This document shows positions 1,293-19,532 of a DNA stretch of 64,000 bases, in pieces. Position numbers and translations under genes: made by a program. Numbering within the stretch: the stretch's first letter is position 1; each line of letters starts with the position of its first letter. The stretch comes from an uncultured delta proteobacterium. Its GTDB lineage: Bacteria > Desulfobacterota > WTBG01 > CAIYCZ01 > CAIRTM01. Below the pieces are notes generated by a model. It made no database searches. It was given only the letters and a program-made list of their open reading frames with translations, and was not told the DNA's origin. The stretch spans positions 192,001 through 256,000 of the forward strand of contig CAWDSQ010000005.1 of NCBI GenBank assembly GCA_963804955.1, in the 5' to 3' direction.

Positions 1293-2261
1293 GAAATCAT
1301 TTCTGCCGTAAGTTTTGAGCGGAAAAGTCTGTAGCGGGCGCCAACCCGCAGCAGGCAAACAATACCACACTACAGACCGGCAGGGCATGATATTTTCATT
1401 GTGCCTCTACCCCACTCAGCGGGTAGAATGCGCAGAGCGCACCGAATATTATAAGAAATGATGCGCAGCGCATACCTTGCCAGCCGTGTCGCAGGTGCAT
1501 ATTTTTTTTATCCCGGGTCCGCTGCTGCGGACTGCACCTGCACTCCAGCCTATTGTCTACAGCCTGTCTGGTCCGCATCAATGACTTTGCAGCTTTCCTG
1601 CCGAAAACAAACTCCTCGACACTTTTATTGAAATTTGCAATAAGCATTTAAGCTAAGGGCTGAAAGTTCCGGACGCCGCATCACTACTGGAAGTTTCTAA
1701 AGGGTAGGGGGGCCGGCGCAGTCACCTGCGGGGTTTTGCCGGTCTGTGTAAAACTCTGATGAAATTATATAATCATGGAAAGGCTGAACCGCTCTTTTAC
1801 CAATGCCCTTTCGGGAAATATTTTTATTGACGCCTGCACTATTCAGAATAATATCGGAGGCACCTGGTACCCTGTGTATCCGGGTATATCAATGCATGCT
1901 GAAACGCACATTGAGGTAGTTGATTCAGTGATAACGGAATAGCGATGCATTAACAAACGCGCACCTTTTCATGCAGGCTGTCCGAAAGTAATCGTATGGC
2001 GCACGATTTAAAAAACTTTTTTAAATCGATCAACGAGATAAGCAGCCACGGCTTGTTATTATTTGTATCGCTGCTTGCAGCAGTGGTTTTATTCTGCCTG
2101 CTCCCGGCCCTCCTGCACCTGGCTATTATTCTTCTTGCCGTATTCTCCAAGTGATTCAGCAGTTTTAAAAGCATCTGTTTCCCGGTATGACCCCGGCTTA
2201 AAAATTTTAAGCTGCAGTTCCGCCTTCTGTCCGCTCCGCAGTTTTGAATCTTGAATCATTC

Positions 2262-2390
2262 TCCCCGAACTCCCAACTCCACCAACCATCTGATGCTCCC
2301 AACTCAATCCGAACTCCAACCCTGAACTCCAACCCGAACTCCGAACCATCTGATGCTCCCAACTCCGAACTCCCAACTCCGAACTTCACA
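2262..2390. repeat. Degenerate 6-7-mer tandem repeat (CCGAACT/CCAACT) containing two copies of AACCATCTGATGCTCCCAACTC
   Basis: Seen directly in the sequence. Confidence 0.8.
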
Positions 2391-2750
2391 TCTCCGCCCC
2401 TGACCCTTAACCAATGCTAAGCTTTTTTAATAAAATAAAAAATCCCATTGAATAAAACACAAAATAATGGTTTGATGTTCAAACATTTTAAACTTACCCT
2501 GGGGGCTTCGTGAAAAGTAAGTTTATCATCTCCACCGCTGCTGCCACTAACGTACCACTGACACCTGATCCCCGAACCCTGACACCTAAAACAAGCGCTG
2601 CGCGGCGCGTATTCGCATGCCGGTCTATTAAAGCAAAACAGTCGGGAAAAACGAAATGGGGAAGTGTCTAAGTAGCGTGGTTCTTCATTGCGCTATACAG
2701 GCAAAAAAGTGGTGGCTGTTGTCTTTAATTATTTTCCAGGAGGAGCAGGC

Positions 2751-3557
2751 ATGCTGAAAAAAATACTTTTACGGACGGTAATCGTGCTTGCAGCACCACT
2801 GCTGCTTGCCGGCTGCACGATGTATGACAAAGATGCTATCATCGACGGCATCGAATTCGTGTACTGCCCGCCGGGGTCTTTTCTCATGGGCTGCCTGCCC
2901 GGTGAAGAAGGCTGCTCCACATCGGAGCAGCCGCAGCATACGGTGACATTCTCCAGCGGGTTTTATATTTCAAAATACGAGATCACGCAGAGGCAGTGGT
3001 TGGCGGTCATGGGAACGCGGCCATCACGCAATCGCCGGTTGCTGCTGTGCGCCACCGCCGATTCTCCCGTTGACAGCGTAACCTGGCCGGAAACCCAGGA
3101 GTTTATGACCGCTCTTAACGAGGCCCGGCCCGGCAGGCAGTATCGCCTGCCGTCCGAGGCCCAATGGGAATACGCCTGCAGGGCCGGAACGACAACCCGG
3201 TATTACTGGGGCGATGATCCTGATACTGCGCTCATGCCCGACTACGCCTGGGTGCCGGAGAACAGCCTCAGAAGGACGCATCCCGTGGGGCTGCTGGAGC
3301 CCAATGCCTGGGGCATTCACGACATGGGCGGCAATGTATGGGAATGGGTGCAGGATTACTGGTACAATGGGTATAACGGCGCGCCCGCCGACGGAACCGC
3401 CTGGGAGGCGGCCCCCTCGGAATTGCGCGTGGTGCGGGGCGGCAGCTACACGAATAACCGGGGCTGCCGTTCGGCTTTTCACGGCGGCTACAACCCGGAA
3501 ATACGCAACAGGGATTACGGTTTTCGCATCGTCTATAGCGGCACGGGCGCGCCCTGA
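2751..3557 (+). CDS. Formylglycine-generating-enzyme (FGE-sulfatase, C-type-lectin fold) family lipoprotein
   Basis: Lipobox LLAGC; motifs YEITQRQW, YRLPSEAQWEYACRAGT, PNAWGIHDMGGNVWEW, RGGS...GFR; AGGAG RBS. Confidence 0.9.
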   Translation: MLKKILLRTVIVLAAPLLLAGCTMYDKDAIIDGIEFVYCPPGSFLMGCLPGEEGCSTSEQPQHTVTFSSGFYISKYEITQRQWLAVMGTRPSRNRRLLLCATADSPVDSVTWPETQEFMTALNEARPGRQYRLPSEAQWEYACRAGTTTRYYWGDDPDTALMPDYAWVPENSLRRTHPVGLLEPNAWGIHDMGGNVWEWVQDYWYNGYNGAPADGTAWEAAPSELRVVRGGSYTNNRGCRSAFHGGYNPEIRNRDYGFRIVYSGTGAP

Positions 3558-3574
3558 AAAACCGGCAGCCGGAA

Positions 3575-3645
3575 GAAGGGTGGGTAAAACCCACCATCAA
3601 TGATTGAAATAACAGATGGGTTCCGCGACGCTGCACCCGCTACAG
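3575..3645. repeat. REPIN-like element, family A copy 1 (other copies at 5358-5430 and 9315-9390)
   Basis: GGTGGGTAAAACCCACC hairpin followed by CCATCAATGATTGAAA and CGCTGCAC, shared with the other copies. Confidence 0.65.
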
Positions 3646-3716
3646 ACTTATTTAAAAAACAACCGGGGCAAACGGAACAGTGAAGTGTCCCTGATTTTCG
3701 AAAGAGAAGGATACGC

Positions 3717-4000
3717 ATGCTGAAACTTGTGCCGGAAAATAAGCTGCTGCGCTTCGCGCTGGGCCTGTTCACGCTGCTGGTGCTGCCGGGCTGCGCGACC
3801 AGCCAATGGTGAGAATACAATCCGGCGCCAAACCGCCGGCAGATGCCTTCGTTGCGGTGAATTACAGTGATCACTGGTTCTGGATCGATAACAGCGACTA
3901 CCATTCCAAGGCTGTTTTCAGCTTTCTGATGCTGCTGACCTCGCTGGCCCAGACCGGCGTGGCGCCGCAAACACCCGTAATTACCGTTCCGGCTTCCTGA
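3717..4000 (+). pseudogene. Lipoprotein remnant: signal peptide joined out of frame to a C-terminal fragment
   Basis: MLKLVPENKLLRFALGLFTLLVLPGC (3717-3812) overlaps ORF 3806..4000 (ADAFVAVNYSDHWFWID...PVITVPAS). Confidence 0.55.
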
Positions 4001-4077
4001 AAAAAAACAGGCGGGTGAATTTGCGTGCGATAATTCCTTAAAACCTGTTGATTTGTAACAATTTTTTGGTTACATAT

Positions 4078-4344
4078 ATGGTATATGAAATTCTGGTCAG
4101 CAAAAAGGTTTTAAAGAATATTGAAAAAATGCCGGCGCCCGTTCAAAAGAAGCTGGTAAACCTTATTGACGACCTTCGTGACAGAGGGCCTCTGCGCAGT
4201 GAGTGGCCGAATTACAGCAAACTTGGAGCAGACAGCTATCATTGCCATCTTGCCCATAAGTGGGTTGCATGCTGGCAGTGGAGGAAACAGTCAATCATTA
4301 TAGAGGTGTATTATGCAGGCAGTCGTGAAAACGCCCCATATTGA
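4078..4344 (+). CDS. RelE/HigB-like toxin of a type II toxin-antitoxin pair
   Basis: 88 aa basic protein (YHCHL...WVACW...EVYYAGSRENAPY) that overlaps a downstream HTH gene, in toxin-first order. Confidence 0.75.
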   Translation: MVYEILVSKKVLKNIEKMPAPVQKKLVNLIDDLRDRGPLRSEWPNYSKLGADSYHCHLAHKWVACWQWRKQSIIIEVYYAGSRENAPY

Positions 4345-4681
4345 CATTACGATACGCGGCAATATTCCGGAAAAACTTCTTTTGGCGCTGAAAAAAGAAT
4401 ATGGCCGGAAAGTCCGTATTGTTGATGACTCCGAGAATACCCTGCTGCGAGCTGTTGATACCGACTGGTATAAAAAAACAAAGGCCTCGATTCAGCCCGG
4501 TGACAATATGAAGCTCTACCGGGACCTGCATAAAATGACACAGGCTGAACTCGGCGAAAAACTCGGCGGCCTTCCCCGGCAGCATATTTCAAACATGGAA
4601 CGAGGCATGCGGGCCATCAGCCTTGCTACGGCAAAAAAACTGTCCGCTTTGTTTAAAGTCTCTGTTGAGCGGTTCATTTGA
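4313..4681 (+). CDS. XRE-family HTH antitoxin (HigA-like)
   Basis: C-terminal HTH MTQAELGEKLGG...HISNMERGMRAIS. Confidence 0.8.
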   Translation: MQAVVKTPHIDITIRGNIPEKLLLALKKEYGRKVRIVDDSENTLLRAVDTDWYKKTKASIQPGDNMKLYRDLHKMTQAELGEKLGGLPRQHISNMERGMRAISLATAKKLSALFKVSVERFI

Positions 4682-4746
4682 GGCCCAGTTAACGCAATAC
4701 CTGCAGCGTGTGTGCACCGCACACCATGGTGACGGAATAACCAATT

Positions 4747-5256
4747 ATGCAACTCATTTGTTGTACTAAAAAGCTGCAAAAAGAAATGGGCATCACCAAA
4801 TCCGCGCTCGCGGCAGCCTGGCCCTTGCATACCCGCCTCGGCCCATGGCACGCAAATCTTATTTTTATTGATCGGCGCAAATGCGCTCTGTTTACCAATG
4901 ATAAAACCCTTTTCAATTTCATCGCAGCTGATGTCTCTCGTGCTCAGATACGAAATCTTTCCGAATTGTTCAGGGGTTTTCTAACATGCGTGCTGGCTGA
5001 TGAGGGTTTCCCCCGGCCGGTCATAGAAGCCGTTATGGCCGAGCATGCTGATATCGCGTATGCCAATACCACTAGCAAAAGCGTGCTCGGCTCCATGAAT
5101 GATATAGCCAAAATGTATCACTATCATATTCTGTCCGAAGGCGGGGTACACAGCCCGGCGGTTCCGGCTATCATACGCCAGCTAAACCGAATGCCCTTGA
5201 GCGCTATCGGCTATGGCTACGCAATAGAGAAATTGAGAGCGCTGCTTTACAATTGA
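4747..5256 (+). CDS. DUF6933-like hypothetical protein
   Basis: CTKKL...LGPWHANL...RRKC...SKSVLGSMND pattern. Confidence 0.65.
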   Translation: MQLICCTKKLQKEMGITKSALAAAWPLHTRLGPWHANLIFIDRRKCALFTNDKTLFNFIAADVSRAQIRNLSELFRGFLTCVLADEGFPRPVIEAVMAEHADIAYANTTSKSVLGSMNDIAKMYHYHILSEGGVHSPAVPAIIRQLNRMPLSAIGYGYAIEKLRALLYN

Positions 5257-5577
5257 GCTGGCAGAGTGCTTGATGGGCAGGTTAGGGGACGTTGTTTACT
5301 TTGTTGAATTGCTTGCATGCGGGAGAGGAAAAGGGGAAAGCGCCCTTTAGTAAGAAGGCGGGGTTGGGGATACTACCATCAATGATTGAAAAAAAATCGG
5401 TTGGTTACGCTACGCTGCACTACCCTGCAGACTAGCCCTTTACGTGCCCATCCCGGCAGTCGTTCAAATTTTATTGACACCCGTTACCTCCTGGCGCATA
5501 CAATACAGAGAATGCCCCCCTCAAAGAGAAGACCGGCGCGCGCGTCGAACCAGGTAAACCAATCCGGAGGTGAAAAA

Positions 5578-6165
5578 ATGAAAGTATTGGGTTTTATGGC
5601 AAGTCCGAGAAAGGGCGGAAACTCAGACATGCTGCTTGAACGCTTTCTGGAAGGCGCGAGCTCTTCGGGTGCTGCAACGGAAAAGATCAGCCTCTATGAT
5701 TGCACCATTGAATACTGCCAGGGCTGCCACCTCAAATGCTGGGTTAACGATGACTGCTGCCCCCGGTGGCAGGATGACATGGACATGCTCCATGACAAGA
5801 TGGGCGCAAGCGATCTTCTCGTTTTTTCCTCGCCGGTGTATATGGGCGCGCCCCCGGCAAAGCTCATGGCGTTTTTTGAGCGGAGCATTGACCAGAAGAA
5901 AGTCAATCTTGAAACGCTGAAAGTGGAAAACAACAAGCTCCTCGGCAAAAAAGCGGTAGTGCTGCAGGTTAATTTTTTCAATGATACGGCGTACCAGAAG
6001 CTGCCCATGCTGGTGTATGCAAGGATACTCTCCGAAGTGTTCAAAATGAACATCGTCGGCAGCCTGGGCGTAGCGGATGTGAGAGAGCCCGGGGATATTG
6101 CTCGAAAGAAAGACTCCCTGCAGGAGGCCTATAACCTTGGCGCACAACTGTGCGCCCTGTCGTAA
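5578..6165 (+). CDS. Flavodoxin-like NAD(P)H:FMN reductase / iron-sulfur flavoprotein family
   Basis: SPRKGGNS, CQGCxxxC...C and SPVY motifs; GGAGG RBS. Confidence 0.88.
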   Translation: MKVLGFMASPRKGGNSDMLLERFLEGASSSGAATEKISLYDCTIEYCQGCHLKCWVNDDCCPRWQDDMDMLHDKMGASDLLVFSSPVYMGAPPAKLMAFFERSIDQKKVNLETLKVENNKLLGKKAVVLQVNFFNDTAYQKLPMLVYARILSEVFKMNIVGSLGVADVREPGDIARKKDSLQEAYNLGAQLCALS

Positions 6166-6303
6166 TTGGCTGTATAATTATAAATTATAAGTAAAGGTTG
6201 CTTATTGACTCTTCTAAAATGCTTCAACCGGACTGCAAACTCCTGCTTTACTACTCTAAAGCACAGCCAGAATCAAAAACCCAACCGGCAAAAGGAAAAG
6301 CTC

Positions 6304-7320
6304 ATGAATACAGTTCTGATTAAAGTACCGCCCCTGGCTCTCATCCTCTTAACCGCTTTCGGCCTGTATTCCTGCGGCATGAAAGACAACAACCACTTTG
6401 ACGGCACCTGCACCGAGTTCAGCATGGATGGAAGCGGAGAGGATATACAGATCGACCGGGACCGGGGGCTGGCCTATATCTCTCTGTATGACAGGCAGGG
6501 CCTTGCAAACGATATACCTGTGCCGCCCGGTGACATCCTGGCGCTTGACCTGACAAAAACCCCTTTGGCAGGCACATCTGCACTTCTTGACGGGCCTGAA
6601 CTGCGGCCCCACGGCATAAGCCTGTTCATTGACCAGATCGGACAGCGTCATCTGTTTGTCATCAACCATCCGGAGGACCGCTCAACCGGTGCTGAAAAAA
6701 TTGAGCGCTACCGTGAAGAAACCCCCGGTGCATTCCGTCACGTCGAAACTTTTACAAGCCCCCTGATTACCCGTGCCAATGACCTGGTCGCTGTAGGCGA
6801 CCGCCAGTTTTATGTAGCCCAGGATGTTGACCGCTCAAGCGACGAAACACTGACCAGCCTTGTTTATTTTGACGGGGAAGACTACGCTGTGGCTGCAGAC
6901 GACATCCAGTCCGGCGGCGGCATCAATACGTCTGCTGACTACACGACCCTGTATATCTCCGAAACCAATGGAAAAACTATACGGGTTGTGTCCCGCGATG
7001 TATCTGATGGAAGCATTACTACTCTGCAGAATATAAACCTGGGCACCTCTCCTGACAATATCGATGTTGCCTCAGACGGTTCACTCTGGGTCGGCGCACA
7101 CTCCAAGGTTCTGGCACTGGTACTGCATTTCATCACCGGCAGCAAGTCTCCAACGCAGATACTGCGAATTGACCTCAGCGAATCAGAACCGCAGATTACA
7201 GAAATTTACCTGAATGACGGTGAAGAAATATCTGCCGGCAGCTGCGGCGCCACATACGGCAACACACTTCTGATCGGGTCCATCACTGCTAAAAAGCTGC
7301 TTATCTGTGAAATGGACTAG
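6304..7320 (+). CDS. Arylesterase/paraoxonase-like (SMP-30) beta-propeller lipoprotein
   Basis: Lipobox LYSC; GEDI, PHGI, NDLV and PDNI motifs. Confidence 0.85.
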   Translation: MNTVLIKVPPLALILLTAFGLYSCGMKDNNHFDGTCTEFSMDGSGEDIQIDRDRGLAYISLYDRQGLANDIPVPPGDILALDLTKTPLAGTSALLDGPELRPHGISLFIDQIGQRHLFVINHPEDRSTGAEKIERYREETPGAFRHVETFTSPLITRANDLVAVGDRQFYVAQDVDRSSDETLTSLVYFDGEDYAVAADDIQSGGGINTSADYTTLYISETNGKTIRVVSRDVSDGSITTLQNINLGTSPDNIDVASDGSLWVGAHSKVLALVLHFITGSKSPTQILRIDLSESEPQITEIYLNDGEEISAGSCGATYGNTLLIGSITAKKLLICEMD

Positions 7321-7323
7321 CCC

Positions 7324-7440
7324 GCAGGTCGGGGTGAGGAACGAAACCCGACATCTTCATGCGGGAGCCATTGCGATTGAGCCCGGGGGCTGGTTTGATA
7401 GCTTTGATGTGTCGGGTTCGCTGCACTCAACCCAACCTGC
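7324..7440. repeat. REPIN-like inverted pair
   Basis: GCAGGTCGGGGTGAG..AACCCGACA and TGTCGGGTT..CTCAACCCAACCTGC are complementary. Confidence 0.7.
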
Positions 7441-7705
7441 GAACTAACCATTTTTCCGCATGGTACATTTATCCATCTGATGCCAACAGACATTTAATTT
7501 AAATAACCGGCGTTTGTTATTCTTTCTTCAAATGTCAAAGTTACCCCTCCTGCGAAAGCGTGAGAACAAAAAAACACCCTTTCCTTTACGATACTCCATT
7601 TAAGTGTTATTGAAATAACTGTAAGAACCGGAAACAGAGACCCAACGGGCACTGTATGTGTGCACCTGATGATTGTAAACACTTCATATGAAAAAGGGGA
7701 GAAGC

Positions 7706-8920
7706 ATGAAAAGAAACGCAGTATTGTTTTTGGTTGTTGTGGCAGTGATGTGCTTTACACGGCCCGCCGGGGCCGCCTTTACCAACCTCCTGCAGGACCC
7801 CGGTTTTGAAGCAAATACGCCCAATCCCTATTGGGATGAAGCCTCGACAAACTTCGGGACACCATTGTGCACGGGCGGGGCTTGCGGCACTGGCGCTGGA
7901 ACCGCAGGGCCGCGAACGGGTGCGGTCTGGGCCTGGTTCGGCGGCACAGCATCCTATGAGGCCGGGTCGCTGTCGCAAACCGTCACTATCCCCACCGGCG
8001 CTGCCAAGCTCGAATTTTATTTATGGTTCGGTTTAGCTGAACCAGGCAGCGATGCAACAGACCTGTTCAATGCCGAAATCGACAATGCCACCCTGTTTAC
8101 CACGAATGCGACTGAAATAGCCCTGTACCCGTCGTATACGCTGGTGAGCCTTGATGTCAGCGCTTATGCCGATAATGCTTCGCATACGGTGGTGTTTTCA
8201 TCGATAACCAGTGGCGAGACTGTAAATATCAACCTGGACGATGTGGCCCTGCTCAGTGAACCACCGGTTACTTTGAATATTGTAAAGTCCGGCGCCGGAG
8301 CCGGCACGGTTGCCAGCGCCGACGGCAAAATCAACTGCGGCAGCGACTGCACCGAAGAATATATACAAGGCACGGAGGTGAAGCTTACCGCAGCGGCTGC
8401 TCCCGGCTCAATCTTTACCGGCTGGAGCGGCGAGGGATGTTCGGGGCTGGATAACTGCACGCTGACTATGACTGATAATATGACCGACAATGGTACCGTG
8501 ACGGCGAATTTCGATGTGGCTGCAACGACAACAACCACGACTGCCTCGGCCTGTATTGACAATGACGGCGACGGTTATGGCGAGGGCTGCACCGCAGGCG
8601 ACGACTGCGACGATGACGATGCCTTTTATAGTGAAGTCTGCCCGGACTGCGAGGTGAAAATCATACCCAGGGCCCTGGGCTGGTTTCTGGGTGAAAAAGA
8701 AAAAACCCGGCGCCTGCTCGTCATCGGCAAGAGGAGTACGGAGTTTGACGACACAACGCCGGTTCGGTGGGAGTCCGGTGATATAACCGTGTTGAGCCAA
8801 CGCGTATTGTTTAAGCGGTTCATGTTTATGAAGGTGAGTGTTGACGGCGCAGCACTTGATAAGGGAGCGTACCGGGCACTGATAGGAACATGCTCGGCAA
8901 CACTGAACCTGGTGAGGTGA
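7706..8920 (+). CDS. Secreted multidomain protein (beta-sandwich, InlB-B/Flg_new-like repeat, Thr linker, DxDGDG Ca-binding motif)
   Basis: Signal peptide; GSIFTGWSGEGCSG; TTTTTT; CIDNDGDGYG. Confidence 0.8.
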   Translation: MKRNAVLFLVVVAVMCFTRPAGAAFTNLLQDPGFEANTPNPYWDEASTNFGTPLCTGGACGTGAGTAGPRTGAVWAWFGGTASYEAGSLSQTVTIPTGAAKLEFYLWFGLAEPGSDATDLFNAEIDNATLFTTNATEIALYPSYTLVSLDVSAYADNASHTVVFSSITSGETVNINLDDVALLSEPPVTLNIVKSGAGAGTVASADGKINCGSDCTEEYIQGTEVKLTAAAAPGSIFTGWSGEGCSGLDNCTLTMTDNMTDNGTVTANFDVAATTTTTTASACIDNDGDGYGEGCTAGDDCDDDDAFYSEVCPDCEVKIIPRALGWFLGEKEKTRRLLVIGKRSTEFDDTTPVRWESGDITVLSQRVLFKRFMFMKVSVDGAALDKGAYRALIGTCSATLNLVR

Positions 8921-9443
8921 TCCCTTAAAAACGGCACAACTGGTAACAAGAAAGAGGGGTCAGACGGCTGCCCCCTCTTCATTAAAAAGGGGACAACAGC
9001 GCCCTTTAGGGAAAGCGAATAATCGGCCAGCAGGTGCAGGTTTGCATCCCGCTCTTCGATAAGCCCGCCGATGCGCCGGGGGAACACCAGCACCGAGCAC
9101 TCGGTACAGTTGTCATGCCCAGAAGTCCGCAGGGTGCGCCGTGCGCACCAATGACGGCTGTGGCGTGGATTATTGTGTTGCTATGTCAACGGTACACAAA
9201 ATCCGGTTGCCGGGGTGATTGTGTATTTTGATTGAGATTATTGGTGCTCACTGCGCACACTGCGGACTAAAACATAAAACCTGCCGCCTATCTCTTCATC
9301 ATCGGCGCAAGCTGGCAGGGTGGGTGCAACCCGCCATTAATGAATACATCAAATGAACCGGTGGTTTCGCTGCGCTGCACCCACAATACGGCTGTCAAAC
9401 TCTGCGAGCCCCCCGGCAGAGCCGGGGGGCTCGCTTTGATTAA

Positions 9444-10620: not shown

Positions 10621-10687
10621 TTGCGGACATGGTAAAATTAATCGGGGACACTAAGGGGCGTCCCATAAATAAATTAATAACTTATTA

Positions 10688-10913
10688 TGGTTATCTCCAA
10701 AGCTGAACCTGTGTATGGTCGTTAATTTCATCGCACAATTTTGTCATTTCGACCGCAGGGAGAAATCTTAGACTGAAGTGAAATTATGGCGTTAGGATTT
10801 CTCATCCCGCTTTCAGCGGGATTCGAAATGACAGCAAGAGCAATTACAACAAAACAAAGGGTACATAAGCTGGTGTCCAGAATAAGGGGTTAGTTCAGCT
10901 TCGGAGATAACCA
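10688..10913. mobile_element. MITE-like element with 21-bp terminal inverted repeats and an internal REP-like palindrome
   Basis: TGGTTATCTCCAAAGCTGAAC / GTTCAGCTTCGGAGATAACCA (1 mismatch); inner TGTCATTTCGA...TCGAAATGACA at 10742-10833. Confidence 0.7.
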
Positions 10914-11109
10914 AAAACCATATAACAACAAAAAGCACTGAAAAAATCGGGGGCTTTTTTTTGATGTTTCCTGCTTGCACCCTTTTTTGAGACAGCTAAA
11001 TCATTATTCCCGTCATTGCAGATTGAAATGTAAAACGCCTTTTGCTAAGCTCCGAAAAAGTATTGAAGTACTGAGCGTGTACCCTTTTCCCTAATCAATC
11101 AGAGGGTCT

Positions 11110-11631: not shown

Positions 11632-11766
11632 AAAAACAGGCATTGGGAACCCACAACGCGTCACATCTTAGATTAATCAGGGACTAAAAAGTTTGGCATA
11701 AACATAAGGCACATATACTGGCGAATAATTAATATTTAAGACCCTGAATTTTCCTGAATTGATAAC

Positions 11767-12450: not shown

Positions 12451-12495
12451 ATAACGATATCTTTGCAGGGACACGAGGAAAGGGAAAAGGGGACA

Positions 12496-12730
12496 ACAAC
12501 GCCCTTTAAGGGAAAGCCAATAATCGGCGAGCAGGCAGTAATGTGGCTTTGTTGAATTGGTTATGTCATTATCATTCCGAGGGACAAGAGGGGGAGGAAA
12601 TTAAGGACACTTTCCTGTTTAGCCCGGCCATAAAATGAAGCGGGAGCAGAATTGAAACTGCCCCCGCTTTTTATTCGGTGGGCATAGCCCACCCTGCATC
12701 TATATCTTACCGCACCATGTGAACGGTGCC
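12496..12730 (+). repeat. ~235 bp direct repeat, copy 1
   Basis: Aligns to 15830-16065 with about 17 differences by eye; a partial copy lies at ~8987-9033. Confidence 0.92.
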
Positions 12731-12855
12731 TGGGACCTTCAAACTAGGGGCCGTTGTTGAATTGGTTAAATTGCTTACGTTACAGTCAACTCTTTACGGG
12801 AGCTGAAAACATCCCTTGTTTAGGGTCTGCACATTCACATGTGAAGCCAATACTT

Positions 12856-13413
12856 CTACGGCTGCGGGGTTAATTCAATCTTATCGGGATTAAACCCGCG
12901 ATCTGCCAGCTGTTGAACAAGTTCGGTATAAAACTGATCGTCCATGGCCGGTGTTCTGCTCAGGATGTACAAGACACTCTTCCCGGGATTTGAAACCACA
13001 GCATAATCATAGTTTTCCCCCAGATCAATAATCCAGTAGGGAAACTCAAATTTCTCAATGCTGGCTCGATCAAAGCGCACCGCAAGTTTGGCGTTGGTTC
13101 TTTGGTCTACTACGCGGGCAACGCCCTGGATGCTGGTAGGCGCCCCGTCAAGTGACCCCACCCGGCCCTGGTTAAGGACACTGACGGTTCCATTATCATT
13201 GAGCGTGTAGAGAGCGGTAACCGCCACGGCATTTTCATCAAACGATGTTGGATAGCGGGCTATTTCATACCAGAGCCCGGCATAGCGCTCAAGATCAACA
13301 TAATCTACTGTTTTCGGCGGCAGCAGCTTGCACCCTGCAACAAAAACAATACAAAACAGCATGCTGAGCATTACCTGAAAACTTTTTGATACATGCTTTT
13401 TGTGGCCCATCAT
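12856..13413 (-). CDS. blc: Bacterial lipocalin (Blc-like lipoprotein)
   Basis: Lipobox VAGC; VDLERYAGLWYEIARYP, YWII and ILSRTP motifs. Confidence 0.9.
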   Translation of the reverse strand: MMGHKKHVSKSFQVMLSMLFCIVFVAGCKLLPPKTVDYVDLERYAGLWYEIARYPTSFDENAVAVTALYTLNDNGTVSVLNQGRVGSLDGAPTSIQGVARVVDQRTNAKLAVRFDRASIEKFEFPYWIIDLGENYDYAVVSNPGKSVLYILSRTPAMDDQFYTELVQQLADRGFNPDKIELTPQP

Positions 13414-13441
13414 AAACCCTTCCTCTATTGTTTGTTGCCGG

Positions 13442-13732
13442 TTAATGTGATGCCGGTATGTCTTCCATGGGCATGGGATTACAGAGGCTGGCTCGGTTGT
13501 CGGCCATCCTGCCGCAGTTCATGCACATGCAGTCGGGCTTTTTAGCAAGCTCCTTGATGAGGTCGAACCGCTCATTGCCGGCGATTTCGCAAAGGTGCTG
13601 CGTATGGTCGCCGGAGCATTTTTCGCAGATGCAGGGGCAGTTCTCTATCAACACGAAAATAGACCGGAAATTTGACAAGCCTGCCCGCGTCCGGATGCAC
13701 GCATTGGTCGGTGATCTTGCGGATTTCTTCAA
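13442..13732 (-). CDS. Small Cys-rich protein, 5' part probably degraded
   Basis: HLC...CxCxxCGR...LCNP motif. Confidence 0.5.
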   Translation of the reverse strand: MKKSARSPTNACIRTRAGLSNFRSIFVLIENCPCICEKCSGDHTQHLCEIAGNERFDLIKELAKKPDCMCMNCGRMADNRASLCNPMPMEDIPASH

Positions 13733-13825
13733 GTAATGGCCCTGATGTCTCCTGCTTTGTTTTGTGGAGATAGAACCGCCTGCCGCCCGCGCTCTTCTGC
13801 AAAAGCATATACCTTCAAAGATGCA

Positions 13826-14323
13826 TTATTTAGGCAGCAGTACTGTATCAATAACATGAATCACTCCATTGCTGCACATAATATCTGTTTTCGTTACCTT
13901 GGCATTATCAACCATAACAGTTCCGTCCATAACGGTTATCTTCAGCTCCTGACCATTGACAGTTTTCGCGGTTTTCAGTTTGGTAACATCTGTAGCCGTC
14001 ACTTTACCCGAGACCACATGATACGTCAGGATGCCCTTCAGCTTTTCTTTGTTTTCCGGTTTAAGTAAATCATCAAGAGTTCCTGCCGGTAATTTAGCAA
14101 AAGCCTCATCAGTGGGGGCAAAAACTGTGAATGGTCCCTTACCCTTCAATGTCTCCACTAATCCAGCAGCTGTTAATGCTTTGGCCAGGGTATTAAATGA
14201 TCCTGCGGCAACAGCTGTATCAACTATATCTTTTTTATCATGGCTTTTTGCCCACCCATTTGTGGTAATTGTAAATATGAATAAAAATGCAACTAATGAA
14301 TAATTAAAAAATAATCTTTTCAT
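13826..14323 (-). CDS. Fasciclin (FAS1) domain secreted protein
   Basis: [20 protein letters not shown] and [13 protein letters not shown] motifs. Confidence 0.95.
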
Positions 14324-14746
14324 AAAATTGCTCCTTTTAAATAAAATAAATTAATTAATAAAGTTTAGTCTTAACTCTTTAATGCAACTTCCGTTAATAA
14401 TTTAAAACTATTGCGCAATAACCTCCTTCCCTTTGTCATATATTAGTATAAAAGAAAAACAGCACTCTGAATCATTATTGTTCAGTGTGCGTCTTTAAGG
14501 TTTTAGATACAGGGGGTATGACTGTGGTATATAGATTAATAAATTCGTATGCGCAAGTCGCAAAACGCAGAATATGTGGTAGCGGGAATAGGCTGGGGGA
14601 ACGTTGATGGCTTTGTTGAATTGCTCAGCAAGAAAAAAGCTGCACCGGCTTGGACCAACCAGGTGACGGTGTGGACACATTGTACAGGCTAAATCGGCCC
14701 CGTACCCTGCAGTCTACTACATGATTCCGGGCAAGCCGGAGTAGAA

Positions 14747-15673
14747 TCATAGAAGGTCTGGTCTGACGCTTTGCACAGGATCAGCATCCGCCGGCAGTGC
14801 TGCCGGGCTCAAAGCAGCCCTTCGGAATACCGGCTCGGCAGGAAAGAGATCGTCTCGATTGGCCATCAACTCCTCGCAGGTGTCAAGGTCGTCGGCAACG
14901 GGGACAAGTAGTATGGGGCTCAGGCCCGGGTCCTCATATTGCGGTGGGCTGCTTGGCATATTCAGGATGTTCAGGGTTGCGCCGATAACGAGTTGCTCTG
15001 ATGTGTCGACAACATGGCCGTAGAGACTGCCGTCAGAGTAAAGGGTGAGAAAGTTCTGAAAAATCTCGCGGCGCGCAATGTAGAGTTCGGCTTTGATGAG
15101 GCCGTAGAGCGTGAGGTGCACGGTGACGCCGGGCTTGCCGTCTCCGTCGTCATCGTTTATGTTCGGATCGTCGGGATTCAGGGAGAGTGGCTGCCAGGGA
15201 TCGCCGTCTATCCCGATGAGGGTTGGCGTGGCCGGGCGCACTATTTTCCAGGCCCCGCCGTCCTGAGACACCTCCACTGTTGCCGTGCGCGGCTTAATAG
15301 CCTGTGTGGCCGCATCGTTGAGGTTCGCGGTAAAGGGCTGATTGTTTTTGTTCACGGAAAAACAGAAACGGTCGGTTTCGACGAGATCATTTCCCTCCAC
15401 AGTAAAGTCGGTGAAGCCGTAAGAAATGATAAAGGTCCGCATCGGCCCGGCAGGCGTCTGGCCAATGTAGGCAACTATGTCGTAGTGGGCGTAATGGCCC
15501 TGAATGGCTGCCTCGGCCTCTGCAGCGGTGGCCGGAGGCACCCAGTCAGGGTCGTTATCCGGCGGCTCATAGAGGGGGCTGTCAGGCCACGGCTTTTGCG
15601 TGCACCCTGTTGTAAAAGACCAGCAGAAAATCAAACTGCTGAAAATCAGCATGCGCAGAAATGTTTTGTGCAT
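14747..15673 (-). CDS. Hypothetical lipoprotein
   Basis: Lipobox TTGC; DDDGDGKPGVTV motif; the 3' end may be frameshift-extended. Confidence 0.75.
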   Translation of the reverse strand: MHKTFLRMLIFSSLIFCWSFTTGCTQKPWPDSPLYEPPDNDPDWVPPATAAEAEAAIQGHYAHYDIVAYIGQTPAGPMRTFIISYGFTDFTVEGNDLVETDRFCFSVNKNNQPFTANLNDAATQAIKPRTATVEVSQDGGAWKIVRPATPTLIGIDGDPWQPLSLNPDDPNINDDDGDGKPGVTVHLTLYGLIKAELYIARREIFQNFLTLYSDGSLYGHVVDTSEQLVIGATLNILNMPSSPPQYEDPGLSPILLVPVADDLDTCEELMANRDDLFPAEPVFRRAALSPAALPADADPVQSVRPDLL

Positions 15674-15829
15674 TGGAAAAACCCTTTTTTCCTGCTGATG
15701 CAGTGCGGCAGGCATTTGCTGTATCCGGCCGGCCCCAAAACCCCGCGTATATTCATTTAGTAGCAGGAAAATTGATATAAAGCAATCCACGGGAAACCGG
15801 AGCAGGGCCATTAGGGGGAATAATTATGG

Positions 15830-16065
15830 ACAACGCCCTTTAATGGAAAGCCAATAATCGGCGAGCAGGCAGTAATGGGGCTTTGTTGAATTGGTTATGT
15901 CATTATCGTTCCGAGGGACAAGAGGGGGAGGGAATTAAGGACACTTTCCCTATTTAGTCCGGCCATACAATGATGCGGGCGCAGCACTGAAACTGCTCCC
16001 GCTTTTTATTCAACGGGCATAGCCCACCCTGCATCTATATCTTACCGCACCATGTGCAGGGTGCC
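15830..16065 (+). repeat. ~235 bp direct repeat, copy 2
   Basis: See copy 1 at 12496-12730. Confidence 0.92.
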
Positions 16066-16120
16066 GGTGCAATTATCAACCGTTACCGTATAATCTCCCT
16101 TTTCAACCAGCGTGCCGCCG

Positions 16121-16184
16121 CCCGTTCAGGAGCAATTTCTTTGACACCGCAGCCCGGTATATCTTATACTGCAAAAAATTAACC
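16121..16184 (+). promoter_or_regulatory. Sigma70 promoter block (TTGACA-18-TATACT), duplicated at 18971-19034
   Basis: CAGGAGCAATTTCTTTGACAC...TATACTG..AAATTAACCG appears in both copies. Confidence 0.75.
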
Positions 16185-16307
16185 GCCAATCTGAAGGGTA
16201 GGCTGCGCCCGCCATTTTTATCTATTTCAAATGAACCGAAGACAATATAAATCTTGCAGGAACTGCGCGACAGCGCCAATATAAATCTACAAACCAGGGA
16301 GTGCCCG

Positions 16308-17972
16308 ATGCTATCAGGAGATTTTAGAAAAGCGGTTTTTTGTGTTTTTATTACTGTCTGGCCAGCGCTGCTCTTGCCGGCACTTCCCCTGCATGCCGCA
16401 GCTCCTCCGGGGACCAATACAAATCCGTTTACTGCCTTCAATCATGACTATGTGCTTATAGCTCTGGGCGACAGCCTGACCCAGGGCGCAATGGATGGCA
16501 TTATTAACTTCAAAACGATCCCCCACGCGTATCTGCAAAGAGTTCATGAATCGCTTGCGCAGGTGCAGGATATCGAACTTGTGCAGCCGCTGCTCGACAT
16601 GGCCGGAAAGCGTATGGCGCCCTTCGCCATCCCGACAAATCTTGCCGTCGGCGGCGCAGGCATCCTCAACATGGATGGTTTCAGCTACGGCAAGCGTGAG
16701 ACCACCGGGCACAAGATCCGCAGCAAAAGGTTTCTCTGCAACAGCCTGCTGCCCGCGAACTTTGAGGATCTCTATGATATAACGCTCTATCCCTACAATC
16801 TCCTGCAGGGCGGGCCAGCGTCACAGATCGACAGCGCTGTCTGGCTGCTCAATTACATACATCGCCACCAGACTGCCCGCGCCGTATGTATTTTGTGGAT
16901 CGGGGCTATTGACGTCGGCTATGCCGCTATGGGTTATGGCTATGGCCATCCTGTTTATGCATTGCTGCCGCTTACCTTCATAGAAAACGTATTGTCGCCC
17001 GGTGCGGCAACATTGCTGCGCCTGGGACAGGCCATCGGCGCGGTCTCCTTTGAGCCCTATACGATGGAGGCCATCGAGCACAACCTCACGGACCCGGCCG
17101 AATTTGCAGCGCAGTATGAGCAAACCCTTGCCAGGCTTGAACAGGGCGTACCCGGTTTTTATGAAACCACCGATCTGTTTGTCTGCACCCTGTATGACAT
17201 CTGGGCCTCGTATCTGTTTGATTCCAATGACCTTGAATTTTATCTGCGCAAGCTTGATAAGCAGTACACGGTGCCGGCAACCTTCGCCCGCGCTCCAGCC
17301 ACGGGGGCATGGGACACCGCTGCACCCCGCGGCGACCGCATAGGGCTCCTCACCTTTTTGTGCATGTACGCGCTGTTCAGCACGGGCGCTGATGCGCAAA
17401 CCGTGAACCAGATACTTGAGGTCGATGGCGTGCAGAATGACGGCCTGGTATTATCGGAAGACGAGCAGGCGCTTCTCCACGAACGCACTGCTGCGTATAA
17501 TGACGCCATCAGGAAGGCTGTGCAGAAACGGGCGGGCAAGGTCCATCTGATTGATATCGGACCCTGGCTTACTGATATATTAACCGACAACGAATCTTAT
17601 AAAGCAGGGGAAAAGAGCATCACCAGCAAATGGGGCCGCGGCGGCTGGTTTACCCTTGACGGCGTGCATCCCGGCCATACCGGTCAGGCGCTTATTGCCA
17701 ACAAAATTATTGAGAACATAAACGGGGCCCTGGGCTGGCATGCGCCCCCTGGCGATATGAGTGCCGTTGCTGCAGATGATCCCTATATTGATAATGACGG
17801 TGACGGCTGGCCAGCCGGTCCGGATTATGATTCTATCGGTCCCACCGGCATGTTTTTCCTCTTCAAAGATCCCGATGACACTGACCCTTTAGTGCTGCCC
17901 GAGCTTACCGCTGATTTCTGGAGCAGGCTTTCCGACGTCATCAAGCTGATCGCTTTTAAGCAATATCCGTAA
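16308..17972 (+). CDS. Secreted SGNH/GDSL-family hydrolase
   Basis: Signal peptide; ALGDSLTQG, NLAVGGA and DGVHP motifs. Confidence 0.85.
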   Translation: MLSGDFRKAVFCVFITVWPALLLPALPLHAAAPPGTNTNPFTAFNHDYVLIALGDSLTQGAMDGIINFKTIPHAYLQRVHESLAQVQDIELVQPLLDMAGKRMAPFAIPTNLAVGGAGILNMDGFSYGKRETTGHKIRSKRFLCNSLLPANFEDLYDITLYPYNLLQGGPASQIDSAVWLLNYIHRHQTARAVCILWIGAIDVGYAAMGYGYGHPVYALLPLTFIENVLSPGAATLLRLGQAIGAVSFEPYTMEAIEHNLTDPAEFAAQYEQTLARLEQGVPGFYETTDLFVCTLYDIWASYLFDSNDLEFYLRKLDKQYTVPATFARAPATGAWDTAAPRGDRIGLLTFLCMYALFSTGADAQTVNQILEVDGVQNDGLVLSEDEQALLHERTAAYNDAIRKAVQKRAGKVHLIDIGPWLTDILTDNESYKAGEKSITSKWGRGGWFTLDGVHPGHTGQALIANKIIENINGALGWHAPPGDMSAVAADDPYIDNDGDGWPAGPDYDSIGPTGMFFLFKDPDDTDPLVLPELTADFWSRLSDVIKLIAFKQYP

Positions 17973-18161
17973 GAGCTCCACAGAGGGCAACAATGGGTAT
18001 GCTGTTGCATTTGTTGAATTAAGCAACTGAATTAATCAGGGACAACAGCCACTGCTTAATTTGCAACAATAAAACGGTACCAATACTGTTGGAGAGGGAA
18101 GGGCGCTGCAGAGCAGGTCCTCAGAGCCTGACGTATCAAGGCCGGGCTGCGGCAGCGAGCT

Positions 18162-18761
18162 TTATTTATGCCGCCGGGATTGCTGTAATAAATAAAACAG
18201 GAGCATCTTGCGGTCTATAGCGTTTTGGTCGAGATTGCCATCGCTGTAATCAAGCAGGTGGTCATGCTTTGGTGTGTCAGCCCCCGGCGCCTGCGTGTCC
18301 GTGCAGGCAGGGTCAAAAATTTCAGAAGGGTAGCCCTGCCAGGCTGGGCTTGTGAACCCGCTGCTGCCGGCAGTGTAATAAACGGTAAAGTCCGCTGCGC
18401 AGTTGGTAAAAACATCAGCCCCCATCAGTGGCGCATTCCCGCTGAAAAATGCGCTTGTGAGGTTGGCGCAATCAGAAAATGCCGCATCCTCAATGCTGGT
18501 AACGCTGTTCAGGATAAGTATGCTCTCCAGGCTCAACTGCCCGGCAAAAGCACAATTCCCAATGGTGGCAACCGGCTTATTGTCAATGGTATCCGGGATT
18601 ACAACAGACCCGCCAGAACCGGTATAGCCGGTGATTATGATTGCGGCAGTGCCGCTCGATACCGTATATGTAAAATCAACCAGCTGCGCTGCAAAGGCCG
18701 ACGGCAACAGAAACACACAACCGGTTAAGGTTACAATGAATGCCGTTTTTCTGAAGTGCAT
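18162..18761 (-). CDS. BspA-like leucine-rich-repeat secreted protein (short, possibly truncated)
   Basis: ITGYTGSGGSVVIPDTI...VTSIEDAAFSDCANLTS motif. Confidence 0.75.
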   Translation of the reverse strand: MHFRKTAFIVTLTGCVFLLPSAFAAQLVDFTYTVSSGTAAIIITGYTGSGGSVVIPDTIDNKPVATIGNCAFAGQLSLESILILNSVTSIEDAAFSDCANLTSAFFSGNAPLMGADVFTNCAADFTVYYTAGSSGFTSPAWQGYPSEIFDPACTDTQAPGADTPKHDHLLDYSDGNLDQNAIDRKMLLFYLLQQSRRHK

Positions 18762-18970
18762 AGGGCCCTCTTTGGAATCTGTTTATTCCCGTTCACTAAC
18801 AAGCCATAAACCAATGAGCTTGTCGGTCAACGCCACACTCTTTACTATCAGTATAGCATGGAATAAAGAAGGCGGAATTAACCGGGAGAAAGCATACTGA
18901 CTCTTCACCCTCATCCCCGTAAGTGGCGCAGAGGGAATGTCTCTGCAGAGCAGATCTTAAGAGCCTGCCG

Positions 18971-19034
18971 CCCGCACAGGAGCAATTTCTTTGACACAGC
19001 AGGCGGGCATAGCCTATACTGAATAAATTAACCG
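18971..19034 (+). promoter_or_regulatory. Sigma70 promoter of comEA-like gene
   Basis: TTGACA at 18991 and TATACT at 19015. Confidence 0.75.
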
Positions 19035-19115
19035 TTGATTTGCATGGCTGGCGCAGCCCACTCTACGGTCTTTGTTTCTTTGAATTATGTAACCCCACGT
19101 GTAAGGAGTAAGGTA

Positions 19116-19481
19116 ATGAAGGTGGTCCATAGTTTTATATTTATAAGTGCTGTACTGTTTGCCTGTACCGTCGCGCCTGTTCTGGCCCAGCAGGCAGAGA
19201 AGCCAACTACATCGGCTCTATTTGAGAAGGCTAAAAAACCTGCCAAGCCTCCAGTAACAGGCAAAATCAATATAAATACCGCAACGGCAGAGCAGCTTGC
19301 AATGCTGCCCGGCGTCAGCATGAGAAAGGCCCAGGGGCTTATTGACTACCGCACCAAAAACGGTACGTTCAAAGATATAGAAGACCTCCGAAAAATGCCG
19401 GGCATCAAGCAGAAAAGAATTGATAAGGTTAAAGAGTATTTAATATTTGACGGCGAGACAACACTGAAAGCCGTACAATAA
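19116..19481 (+). CDS. comEA: ComEA-family helix-hairpin-helix DNA-binding protein
   Basis: ININTATAEQLAMLPGV...IDYRTKNGTFKDIEDL motif; signal peptide. Confidence 0.88.
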   Translation: MKVVHSFIFISAVLFACTVAPVLAQQAEKPTTSALFEKAKKPAKPPVTGKININTATAEQLAMLPGVSMRKAQGLIDYRTKNGTFKDIEDLRKMPGIKQKRIDKVKEYLIFDGETTLKAVQ

Positions 19482-19498
19482 GAGCTGCTGTAAAAACA

Positions 19499-19532
19499 AA
19501 AAAGGCGGAGTCGTAGTCGGCTCCGCCTTTTT
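19499..19532. terminator. Intrinsic terminator after comEA
   Basis: AAAAAGGCGGAG...CTCCGCCTTTTT. Confidence 0.75.

Follow-up and report, generated by a model that had tools for sequence, protein, structure and literature searches.

GGGAC-headed repeats in a shuffled accessory gene array of an uncultured delta proteobacterium are probably orphan ends of Y1 (TIRYT-like) genes

Introduction

What are the short GGGAC-headed repeats that separate the unrelated genes of a bacterial accessory array, and do they take part in the shuffling of these genes? The question is raised by the first 19.5 kb of a 64,000-nucleotide (nt) stretch of DNA from an uncultured delta proteobacterium, hereafter the window, which covers C5:192001-256000 (contig C5) of G000, a 4.26-Mb metagenome-assembled genome (MAG) of 36 contigs and 87% completeness. 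An earlier note on this DNA had described an integron-like array there and had read the motifs of its spacers as ends or scars of a gene-capture system, possibly acting in trans through a HUH (Y1) transposase. We compared the window with the closest congener G003, which is also a MAG, with another relative (G002), with Logan contigs from three other metagenomes (X1-X3, aligned at 90% likeness or above) and with scanned loci (L-numbers) from metagenome contigs, relatives' genomes or sister regions of G000. We hold with moderate confidence that the motifs are orphan terminal repeats of Y1 genes spread in trans, that a minority of the rearrangement joints arose from exchange at their heads and that the remaining turnover of the array is ordinary.

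Results and Discussion

Several families of GGGAC-headed repeats occupy the spacers

The spacers hold at least three GGGAC-headed families, called modules A, B and C, together with four other kinds of repeat, rather than the one family of motifs that had been proposed. Module A (TAGGGGACGTTGTTGAATTAGTTGAATTG) is built of GGGGACGTTGTTGA and two tandem units of about 9 nt, and its full form in G000 and other genomes is (T)AGGGGACGTTGTTGA(A/C)TT(A/T)GTTGAATTG with sharp edges. Module B is AAAAGGGGAC..CGCCCTTTA, which can also be written GGGGAC..CGCCCTTTAA, and module C is AATCRGGGACA(ACAGCCAC), of the AATCRGGGACA..CAGCCAC type. The word TTGTTGAATT was found six times within 12.7 kb (at 5301, 12549, 12754, 14613, 15883 and 18011), each time on the + strand, and the rest of the 64 kb has none; since the genome holds 22 copies in 4.26 Mb on both strands, 0.07 copies would be expected in that span. 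The full-motif 24-mer with up to 6 mismatches gave 25 matches in the genome versus 2 in the reversed genome.

AATYRGGGAC lies on the + strand at 10640, 11675 and 18034 with its complement at 3687, AATTAAGGACAC lies at 12599 and 15933 with no further copy in the genome, and GGGGA..CGCCCTTTA lies at 5333, 8989 and 12489 with a CGCCCTTTA variant at 15834. All the motifs listed in the earlier note were present, but two of its positions were off by 1 nt and one by 10 nt (GTCCCATAAAT, placed at 10650, starts at 10660), and the string given as a complement at 11740 has GACCC rather than GTCCC. Its statement that the motifs are missing past 20 kb held for the longer words, as CGCCCTTTA (4 copies), AATYRGGGAC (3 and 1 inverted) and AATTAAGGACAC (2) are restricted to the first 19 kb, but not for the bare pentamer GGGAC/GTCCC, which occurs 32 times there. 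Two of the A tails, one B with its variant at 15834 and both AATTAAGGACAC copies are contained in a 236-nt duplication (12496-12730 and 15830-16065, 92.4% identity).

Inverted copies of such repeats flank Y1 genes

The first three Y1_Tnp genes that we viewed all lie between inverted GGGAC-headed repeats. The gene on G000:C30 is flanked by AAAGGGGACGGTTCTAT and ATAGAACCGTCCCCTTT, the gene on G000:C20, which is split in two frames, is preceded by two copies of AATAGGGGACGTCCATG and followed by an inverted one, and a frameshifted gene on G003:C21 that resembles the transposases associated with repetitive extragenic palindromes (REP-associated tyrosine transposases, RAYT) has an exact 16-nt inverted repeat (GGGACAGTCACCTATT / AATAGGTGACTGTCCC). 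This last pseudogene sits within a G003 array related to that of the window, and module C resembles the repeat around it, as does the C tail at 17995..18057 in particular. The best model for three Y1 proteins was NF047646 (REP-associated tyrosine transposase), at 79.9 bits for the intact C30 protein and 61.9 and 60.1 bits for the others, against a cut-off of 80, and PF01797 matched the Y1 proteins at 69, 50.9, 37.4 and 42.8 bits against a cut-off of 23, a profile match to the Y1 fold of RAYT type. The TnpA type of the IS200/IS605 insertion sequences was rejected, with NF033573 at 27.9 and 25.6 bits, far under its cut-off of 55, and ends that are inverted repeats.

Module A itself was traced in metagenome contigs, where an exact-pattern search returned 14 loci. 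One of these, L074, carries an intact 321-aa Y1_Tnp gene (602-1567) with TAGGGGACGTTGTTGACTTTGTTGAATTG upstream at 526-556 and an inverted A copy directly after the stop codon. With its protein as a query we obtained 16 loci in 13 genomes of the class, every one with flanking inverted repeats and 15 of them with the GGGACGTTG head on both sides of the gene. A-like tails were seen at the closest homologues (77% and 73% identity) and at four more of 60-62% identity, these loci being L082, L081 and L083-L086. Given L074 and the 16 homologous loci, module A represents the inverted repeats at the ends of one clade of Y1 (IS200/RAYT-like) genes, and its six window copies are orphans; no Y1 gene was found on contig C5. 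The supposed tie of the motifs to the HUH/Y1 (RAYT-like) class was borne out by these flanking inverted copies; proximity to Y1_Tnp/RAYT genes was found in relatives, at L074 and on other contigs, but not on C5. At L074:2-562 we also noticed an RHS-repeat open reading frame (ORF) whose last codons (..GDVVDFVELL) and stop lie within the upstream A repeat, so that the Y1 unit may have been inserted into the 3' end of an RHS-repeat gene.

The tail of the G000:C20 gene resembles DnaA_C (Bac_DnaA_C, 27.2 bits, under the 31.5 cut-off), and a homologue of this tail was present in 29 of the 41 genomes searched, all relatives in the class. A GGGAC-headed element stood at a fixed upstream distance at 14 of 17 such Y1-DnaA_C loci, with an inverted copy at most 45 nt after the stop at 7 of the 17. 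A weight matrix made from 13 C20-type terminal repeats of Y1-DnaA_C genes in relatives found a single match in the window, at 10656 (14.5 bits, shuffle mean 0.5), which falls in the 10640..10687 site. Since this C20-type matrix scores one window site, A, B and C are separate families that share the head and the general build alone.

Some further observations concern these repeats and genes. A sister repeat family, GGGGACGTTGT(T/G)GACAAA(T)TGTACA.., forms 29-30-nt inverted repeats around the Y1 genes in G003:C34 and G030:C9 and is also present no more than about 700 nt from a further four Y1 genes; its sites include G000:C30:146905, G003:C21 at about 35195, L039, L041, L089 and L109. G000 holds 32 tandem arrays of the 9-mer GTTNNATTR with 3-11 units (e.g., C7:534579, C19:49479, C17:5129, C20:96729 and C22:29384), often as inverted pairs and often adjoining a start codon with a T-run alone between. 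Both A-tail units resemble this 9-mer, and a link between the DnaA_C-like tail of the Y1 proteins and the 9-mers is possible. The hexamer GGGGAC/GTCCCC is about 3-fold under-represented in G000 (696 occurrences, versus 1253-3506 for seven of nine other G-rich hexamers), and its avoidance is possible as GGGAC is a Type IIS restriction site. A coding-remnant origin of module B, which was considered for the peptide-like strings in six-frame translations of both strands of this quasi-palindrome, was dropped because B-like repeats were found at Y1 gene ends. A sigma-54 promoter, a Xer/dif site, a CRISPR repeat and an att duplication of a tRNA 3' end were rejected by eye.

Copies gather in a few accessory loci

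As had been suspected, the motif copies cluster in accessory loci and are not evenly dispersed, since the A-like copies of G000 are gathered at C5:197-210k (6), C7:258-270k (4, all on the - strand), C11:103-114k and C5:61k and on C29, C30 and C21. The C7 and C11 loci and the right part of C5:48-68k contain many toxin-antitoxin pairs, LRR_5 and other secreted proteins, and SNase, TerB, WYL and HNH genes, and tRNA-Asp and tRNA-Val, next to lon and clpXP, form the end of the C7 locus. Among the sister loci scanned (L028-L031 and L033), none matched a transposase or recombinase family. Within an array the A copies point one way, 6 of 6 on the + strand in the window, 4 of 4 on the - strand at C7 and 3 of 3 in G003:C21. 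The same motif is carried by five other genomes, which are MAGs of uncultured Desulfobacterales, Thermodesulfobacteriota or 'delta proteobacterium'.

The array is shuffled between relatives

Gene order was not conserved in the closest relative, in keeping with the expectation of a shuffled array. Five blocks of the window (6170-7320, 11755-12478, 12816-14581, 14658-15793 and short A units) were found at 93-95% identity in G003:C21 in another order, interleaved with other genes that include a toxin-antitoxin pair and the RAYT-like pseudogene. Block 6170-7320 was 94.6% identical in G003:C21 and block 11755-12478 was 94.9% identical in G003, and a 46-nt unit with A1 (5274-5319) recurred in G003:C21 at 89% in a different context. 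Blocks 12816-13813, 13812-14584 and 14658-15793 were present at 93-94% in both G003 and G002 in differing contexts, and the lipocalin and fasciclin blocks kept the same ends in G002 and two G003 contigs while their neighbours differed. From 16308..19481 only 17186-17979 was matched, at 96% in G003:C28, where the adjoining DNA maps to G000:C36; the 15-52 kb part of G003:C21 maps onto 9 different G000 contigs. Another G003 contig is collinear with the window segment at 20.6-30.8 kb, which all four congeners conserve. The array is a mosaic, highly shuffled accessory block.

The X1-X3 contigs provided at least 21 alternative joints. On one 2.8-kb contig the order runs from sequence ending at 12478 to 7453-8996 and then to 12752-13536, and the joint 8996|12752 (X1, record 3) fuses the head of B2 to the tail of A3. 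Set against full A in G003, the composite B/A module of the duplication looks like a hybrid of the same kind. Some ends recurred, namely 12478 (G003, X1, X2), 17979 (G003, X1), 6170 (G003, X3) and 9124 (X1, X2). At the same time, A units of 46-76 nt were present or absent independently of the neighbouring blocks: A3 is linked to the lipocalin block in X1, is missing before the same block in G003 and G002 and follows the 354-aa block on L078, and the A4 unit (14582-14657) stands between two blocks neither of which has it in G003. The order A then C of the A6 site was repeated on L022 and L071.

Among 47 distinct endpoints 29 were non-coding, and four of these (3691, 8996, 10664 and 11685) lay at most 2 nt from an exact GGGAC/GTCCC, versus 0.56 expected (binomial P 0.002); within 10 nt of GGGAC there were 5 versus 1.5 expected. 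Endpoint 3691 is the last base of GTCCC in the inverted C head, 11685 is the first base past GGGAC of the C module and 10664 lies in the C-type site at 10640..10687. The block ends 12816, 14581, 14658 and 17979 are 13-36 nt from an A module. Other joints end at 9124 and 9260 in a dispersed element of about 150 nt or within REP-like elements (3577, 3609, 3636 and 9363), others of the block ends fall in REP-like elements or at the ends of a miniature inverted-repeat transposable element (MITE), and the recurrent ends 6170, 7320 and 13812 have no GGGAC-headed motif. The prediction that gain and loss breakpoints would coincide with the motif was therefore correct for the four head-precise ends, but most breakpoints are elsewhere.

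The favoured explanation

Modules A, B and C would, in the explanation that we favour, be non-autonomous ends spread in trans by Y1 enzymes acting on single-stranded DNA, and such enzymes would, by analogy with their family, cut at or beside the GGGGAC head. The copies would pile up where spacers are permissive, in a small number of accessory arrays, and head-to-head exchange could give hybrid elements (B head and A tail) and a minority of the rearrangement joints. Most turnover of gene blocks would happen elsewhere in the same spacers through ordinary recombination and gene gain or loss. Of these points we take as established that A and C are terminal repeats of Y1 genes, that their copies gather in a few accessory loci and that the array is a mosaic in relatives and in other metagenomes. 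On this explanation the array would be a junkyard and a hot spot of Y1-dependent small repeats with no dedicated capture machine.

Several observations speak against the explanation by orphan repeats. No Y1 gene was found in the window or on contig C5, no L074-type gene was found at E <= 1e-60 in G000, whose assembly is 87% complete, and the Y1 copy on G000:C20 is broken into two frames. Copy numbers are low, with about 18 A-like copies and at most 4-6 in each other family. The C20-type weight matrix did not score A, B or C, and module B is placed by similarity, as it partly resembles the L044 repeat GGGACGCCCTTAAG and the 3' end of the G003:C21 gene. The orientation of A agrees with local GC skew at 5 loci and disagrees at 3, which lends no support to a replication or lagging-strand rule. 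Within 40 nt of an exact GGGAC there were 7 of the 29 non-coding endpoints versus 4.5 expected, which is not significant, and among the G003 non-coding block ends 1 of 9 lay within 10 nt of GGGAC. We regard the enrichment of breakpoints at GGGAC heads as suggestive, because the test was defined after the joints had been seen and the joints, which were read in short contigs at 90% likeness, may in part be due to repeats that different places have in common. Finally, the texts of PMC3733652 and PMC6006769, as far as they bear on the TIRYT genes discussed below, report no member for which cleavage or mobility was demonstrated.

Alternative explanations

The motifs could instead be selfish or decaying elements that ride in non-essential spacers and have no part in rearrangement, the mosaic being due to homologous recombination, horizontal transfer and deletion. 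This is in our view rather unlikely. Many breakpoints are indeed motif-free or lie at MITE ends and in REP-like elements, the cassettes match G003 as closely as the core does or more closely (93-96% versus 83-94% identity) and the loci have typical accessory content. Such passengers would not, however, be expected to produce endpoints within 2 nt of GGGAC at about 7 times expectation, hybrids joined at the head (8996|12752 and the composite B/A module) or copies that are co-oriented within each array.

At the opposite extreme, TIRYT enzymes might cut co-oriented GGGGAC heads, exchange strands and excise, insert or reorder single-gene cassettes, which would make a dedicated HUH platform and an analogue of the integron without attC or IntI. 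We consider this improbable. It is favoured because A is strictly co-oriented within arrays, and the four head-precise joints with the B-head/A-tail hybrid, the block ends at 13-36 nt from A, the RAYT-like gene inside the G003 array and the presence of the same blocks in several contexts (G002, G003, X1-X3 and L078) would all fit. It is weakened because many breakpoints are motif-free and no Y1 gene is nearby; the majority of breakpoints lie away from the heads, the recurrent ends 6170, 7320 and 13812 among them, the A units come and go irrespective of the adjoining blocks, the RAYT-like gene of G003 is frameshifted and neither a circle nor an excised form turned up, the one run of raw reads having aligned a single read. 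The motifs as crossover sites of a gene-capture system, the central proposal of the earlier note, could not be established for these same reasons. The wider form of this idea, in which cassettes are permuted between several arrays of one genome in these Desulfobacterales as the HUH counterpart of the integron and the 9-nt units of the A tail dock the DnaA_C-like domain, appears to us equally doubtful.

A regulatory role, with A as a binding array of two units of about 9 nt or as part of a promoter or terminator of its neighbours, seems very improbable. The 32 GTTNNATTR arrays, several of them directly 5' of start codons (by eye), the upstream repeats of several Y1 genes that end in TTGACA and weak terminator-like matches given by B and C on the - strand would be in line with it. 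The A copies, however, occupy convergent, divergent and tandem spacers on one strand regardless of gene orientation, promoter-like matches number 19 versus 19.1 in shuffles, and inverted A copies flank Y1 genes.

A degenerate integron cassette array with overlooked attC sites (a cluster of attC sites lacking integron integrases, CALIN) is hardly credible. Lipocalin and toxin-antitoxin genes are typical cassette cargo, and G000 does have a true integron on C32, where an integrase (C32:99809-101233, - strand) and the region 101300-107500 correspond to loci L001, L002 and L080. This integrase matches the integron-integrase model TIGR02249 in two pieces (model positions 1-156 and 220-314; 182.7 and 132.3 bits) around a 670-nt insert with two small ORFs, and at least four attC-like hairpins lie among the small cassettes beside it. 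The model gave 7 matches in all, on C32, C20, C35 and C8, and none on C5, where no tyrosine recombinase was found either, so the reported absence of an integrase from the contig was confirmed. We folded A1, A3 and A4 as DNA and compared them, against shuffles, with four C32 sites picked by eye: the A copies folded no better than shuffles (z about +1.0) and not end to end, whereas the AAC and GTT ends were paired in 3 of 4 C32 sites (z -1.45 to -6.6), which agrees with the view that the array is not an attC integron. The array genes are also of mixed orientation and not mostly co-oriented with the sites (11 on + and 6 on -, the frameshifted 3718-4000 ORF left out). Three versions of a home-made attC scanner recovered 0 of the 4 by-eye C32 sites and their output was not used, and a MAFFT alignment of these sites left the 5' arms unaligned, so that no covariance model was made. 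Chimeric contigs misjoined at repeats, to which two MAGs such as G000 and G003 would be open, are next to negligible as a cause, since the joint ends 12478, 17979 and 6170 recur in independent data and the blocks keep their ends in G002 and two G003 contigs.

Relation to known systems

TIRYT (TIR-associated tyrosine transposase) genes and TIRtron units were named by Di Nocera et al. (2013), in whose account a GGGGWSAS motif is common to many of the flanking repeats and the repeats also exist as solo, dimeric and grouped copies (PMC3733652). The relevant part of Quentin et al. (2018) places most TIRYTs in subclass 2.1 of the TnpA_REP-like HUH proteins, with a Bac_DnaA_C or helix-turn-helix (HTH) tail and the repeat consensus GGGG[AT][CG]A[CG] (PMC6006769). 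Judged from their letters and arrangement, the GGGAC-headed motifs appear to belong to this published class. They share with it a Y1/HUH gene between GGGG-headed inverted repeats of about 16-30 nt, an upstream repeat about 50-100 nt before the start and a downstream repeat at the stop, a C-terminal DnaA_C-like HTH in some members, and solo, dimeric or grouped copies elsewhere in the genome. Compared with GGGGWSAS, GGGGACAC at 10643 is exact, A (GGGGACGT) is mismatched at position 7 and B (GGGGACAA) at position 8, and the G003 flank reads TGGGACAG. In contrast to the published elements, the usual head here is GGGGACG(T), which has G instead of A at position 7, the A tail has two tandem units of about 9 nt, the copies are few, are concentrated in a small number of accessory arrays and share one orientation within each, some coincide exactly with rearrangement joints and the window has orphan ends alone. 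Thus the motif class itself is known, and the details that appear to be new are the A family, its tandem 9-nt units, its restriction to co-oriented clusters within shuffled arrays and the joints that fall precisely on the head.

Little work exists on TIRYT/TIRtron elements, and activity is demonstrated in neither of the two accounts (PMC3733652, PMC6006769) as far as these bear on them. The present lineage offers a clean and conserved family of repeats whose enzyme genes are intact in relatives, orphan copies gathered in arrays that differ between near-identical populations and a few joints exactly on the conserved head. This makes it testable whether domesticated-looking Y1 enzymes still cut DNA and whether they reshape genomes. 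For annotation, the 'integron-like' pattern is explained without a new recombination system.

The likeness to REP/REPIN-RAYT systems consists in short non-autonomous repeats that flank a single-copy RAYT-like Y1 gene in inverted orientation and are extragenic, often just 3' of genes; Bertels and Rainey (2011) reportedly described such systems as non-autonomous short repeats with a single-copy RAYT-like gene. Unlike REPs, A, B and C have no GTAG head, A has no hairpin and the copies number tens instead of hundreds. A separate REP-like palindrome family in the same spacers, with one GTAG-headed copy, may qualify. With integrons and CALINs the array has in common mostly single-gene accessory units, co-oriented repeated sites between them and reshuffling between strains, but IntI is missing from the contig, its sites are linear 30-mers and not AAC...GTT imperfect palindromes, the genes have both orientations and most breakpoints lie away from the sites. 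The IS200/IS605 group (IS608, ISDra2) shares the Y1 HUH enzyme, and cleavage beside a short conserved word, together with insertion into a specific strand, would agree with the head-precise joints and the co-orientation, whereas its ends are dissimilar and hairpin-bearing instead of inverted repeats. Flexible genomic islands resemble the array in their strain-specific, fast-turning sets rich in toxin-antitoxin and secreted-protein genes, and one sister locus abuts tRNA genes; the array differs in that neither the window and its surroundings nor the scanned sister loci yielded an integrase or other recombinase and that blocks are swapped among arrays of one genome.

Genes and other repeats of the window

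About 18 genes in both orientations lie between 2751 and 19481 (Table 1), in agreement with the roughly 15 mostly unrelated genes reported before. Twelve have signal-peptide- or lipobox-like N-termini as judged by eye from the translations, so the emphasis on secreted proteins and lipoproteins was well placed. Pfam matches were FGE-sulfatase, HTH_3, DUF6933, FMN_red, SGL/arylesterase-like, Flg_new_2, lipocalin_2, fasciclin, GDSL lipase, LRR_5 and ComEA-like HHH_3; six array ORFs had no Pfam or NCBIfam match. The supposed toxin-antitoxin pair stood in part, as the HTH_3 protein was identified but the overlapping 98-aa partner ORF had no match in Pfam or NCBIfam.

Table 1. Repeats and genes of the array, in window coordinates
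Feature	Position	Strand	Remarks
C-type head, inverted	3685..3696	-	GTGTCCCTGATT on +
A1, solo A-type terminal repeat	5283..5311	+	TAGGGGACGTTGTTTACTTTGTTGAATTG
B1, variant B module	5329..5349	+	AAAAGGGGAAAGCGCCCTTTAG
B2, B module	8985..9008	+	AAAAGGGGACAACAGCGCCCTTTA; short stem AAAGGG/CCCTTT
C-type head paired with terminal-repeat-like copy	10640..10687	+	AATCGGGGACAC; copy GGGGCGTCCCATAAATAAATTAATAAC
C module	11675..11690	+	AATCAGGGACTAAAAAG
Composite spacer module, first copy of 236-nt duplication	12485..12730	+	B3 12485-12508; A2 tail 12544-12560; AATTAAGGACAC 12599; hairpin and T-run 12638-12669; REP-like palindrome 12675-12703
A3, solo A-type terminal repeat	12745..12773	+	head GGGGCC; 2 mismatches to 24-mer
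A4, solo A-type terminal repeat	14597..14623	+	head GGGAAC
Composite module, second copy	15822..16065	+	B variant; A5 tail 15883; AATTAAGGACAC 15933; hairpin; REP-like palindrome
A6, then C module	17995..18057	+	degenerate head GGGTAT; C module AATTAATCAGGGACAACAGCCACTGC
REP/REPIN-like palindrome	3577..3648		GGTGGG..CCCACC type
Dispersed element of ~150 nt	9124..9270		inverted ends
MITE-like element	10685..10916		24-nt terminal inverted repeats (92% complementary); many genome copies
FGE-sulfatase lipoprotein gene	2751-3557	+	profile match
Small lipoprotein gene	3718-4000	+	frameshifted
98-aa ORF and HTH_3 protein	4048-4681	+	HTH_3 4313-4681, overlapped by 98-aa ORF
DUF6933 gene	4747-5256	+	
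FMN_red flavoprotein gene	5579-6165	+	
SGL/arylesterase-like lipoprotein gene	6304-7320	+	
Secreted Flg_new_2 protein gene	7688-8920	+	
168-aa lipoprotein gene	9444-9950	-	no family match
173-aa secreted protein gene	11110-11631	+	no family match
227-aa membrane protein gene	11767-12450	+	no family match
Lipocalin_2 gene	12856-13413	-	
96-aa ORF	13442-13732	-	
Fasciclin gene	13826-14323	-	
354-aa lipoprotein gene	14747-15811	-	
GDSL lipase gene	16308-17972	+	
LRR_5 protein gene	18162-18761	-	
ComEA-like HHH_3 protein gene	19044-19481	+	

The palindrome at 3577..3648 has relatives at 5360-5440, 9317-9395, 12675-12703, 16010-16038, 16195-16238 and 19045-19068, and a GTAG-headed copy was read at 38193-38216, the GTAG/REP assignment being made by eye. 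The element at 9124..9270 has one copy of 91% identity, at C5:63994, and others of about 70%. A hairpin-rich repeat of about 100 nt (TAATCCCCCTTTGAAAAGGGGGAAT...) lies at 30274-30380 and 42505-42604 and is a high-copy dispersed element of the genus, since dozens of copies at 80-92% identity occur in four congeners. In an Rfam scan of window positions 1-24000 at E <= 1 there were just 3 matches, all sub-threshold and at 19.5-20.6 kb, and no tRNAs were found in the window. Counts of intergenic GGGGAC in 20-kb bins were weakly over-dispersed (variance 1.05 versus mean 0.62) and were not used, as the crude ORF mask hid several of the window copies. At the contig end G000:C7:1-8900 there are about 53 perfect tandem copies of a 168-nt unit.

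In the small lipoprotein gene at 3718-4000 the ORF with the signal peptide/lipobox stops at 3811, and reading resumes in another frame at 3806-4000. The leader of the FGE-sulfatase gene (2175-2760) is repeated at C5:53163, C5:60710 and C1:128268 (79-84%), and its short tandem repeats of the GAACTCC type also form a long array just 5' of the RAYT-like gene at C30:144.8-145.2k. In addition, an 84-91% identical module with the near-consensus promoter TTGACA-18-TATACT was observed at 16117-16177 and 18967-19027, and also at C5:66189, and in the array it precedes two unrelated genes, those of the GDSL lipase and the ComEA-like protein.

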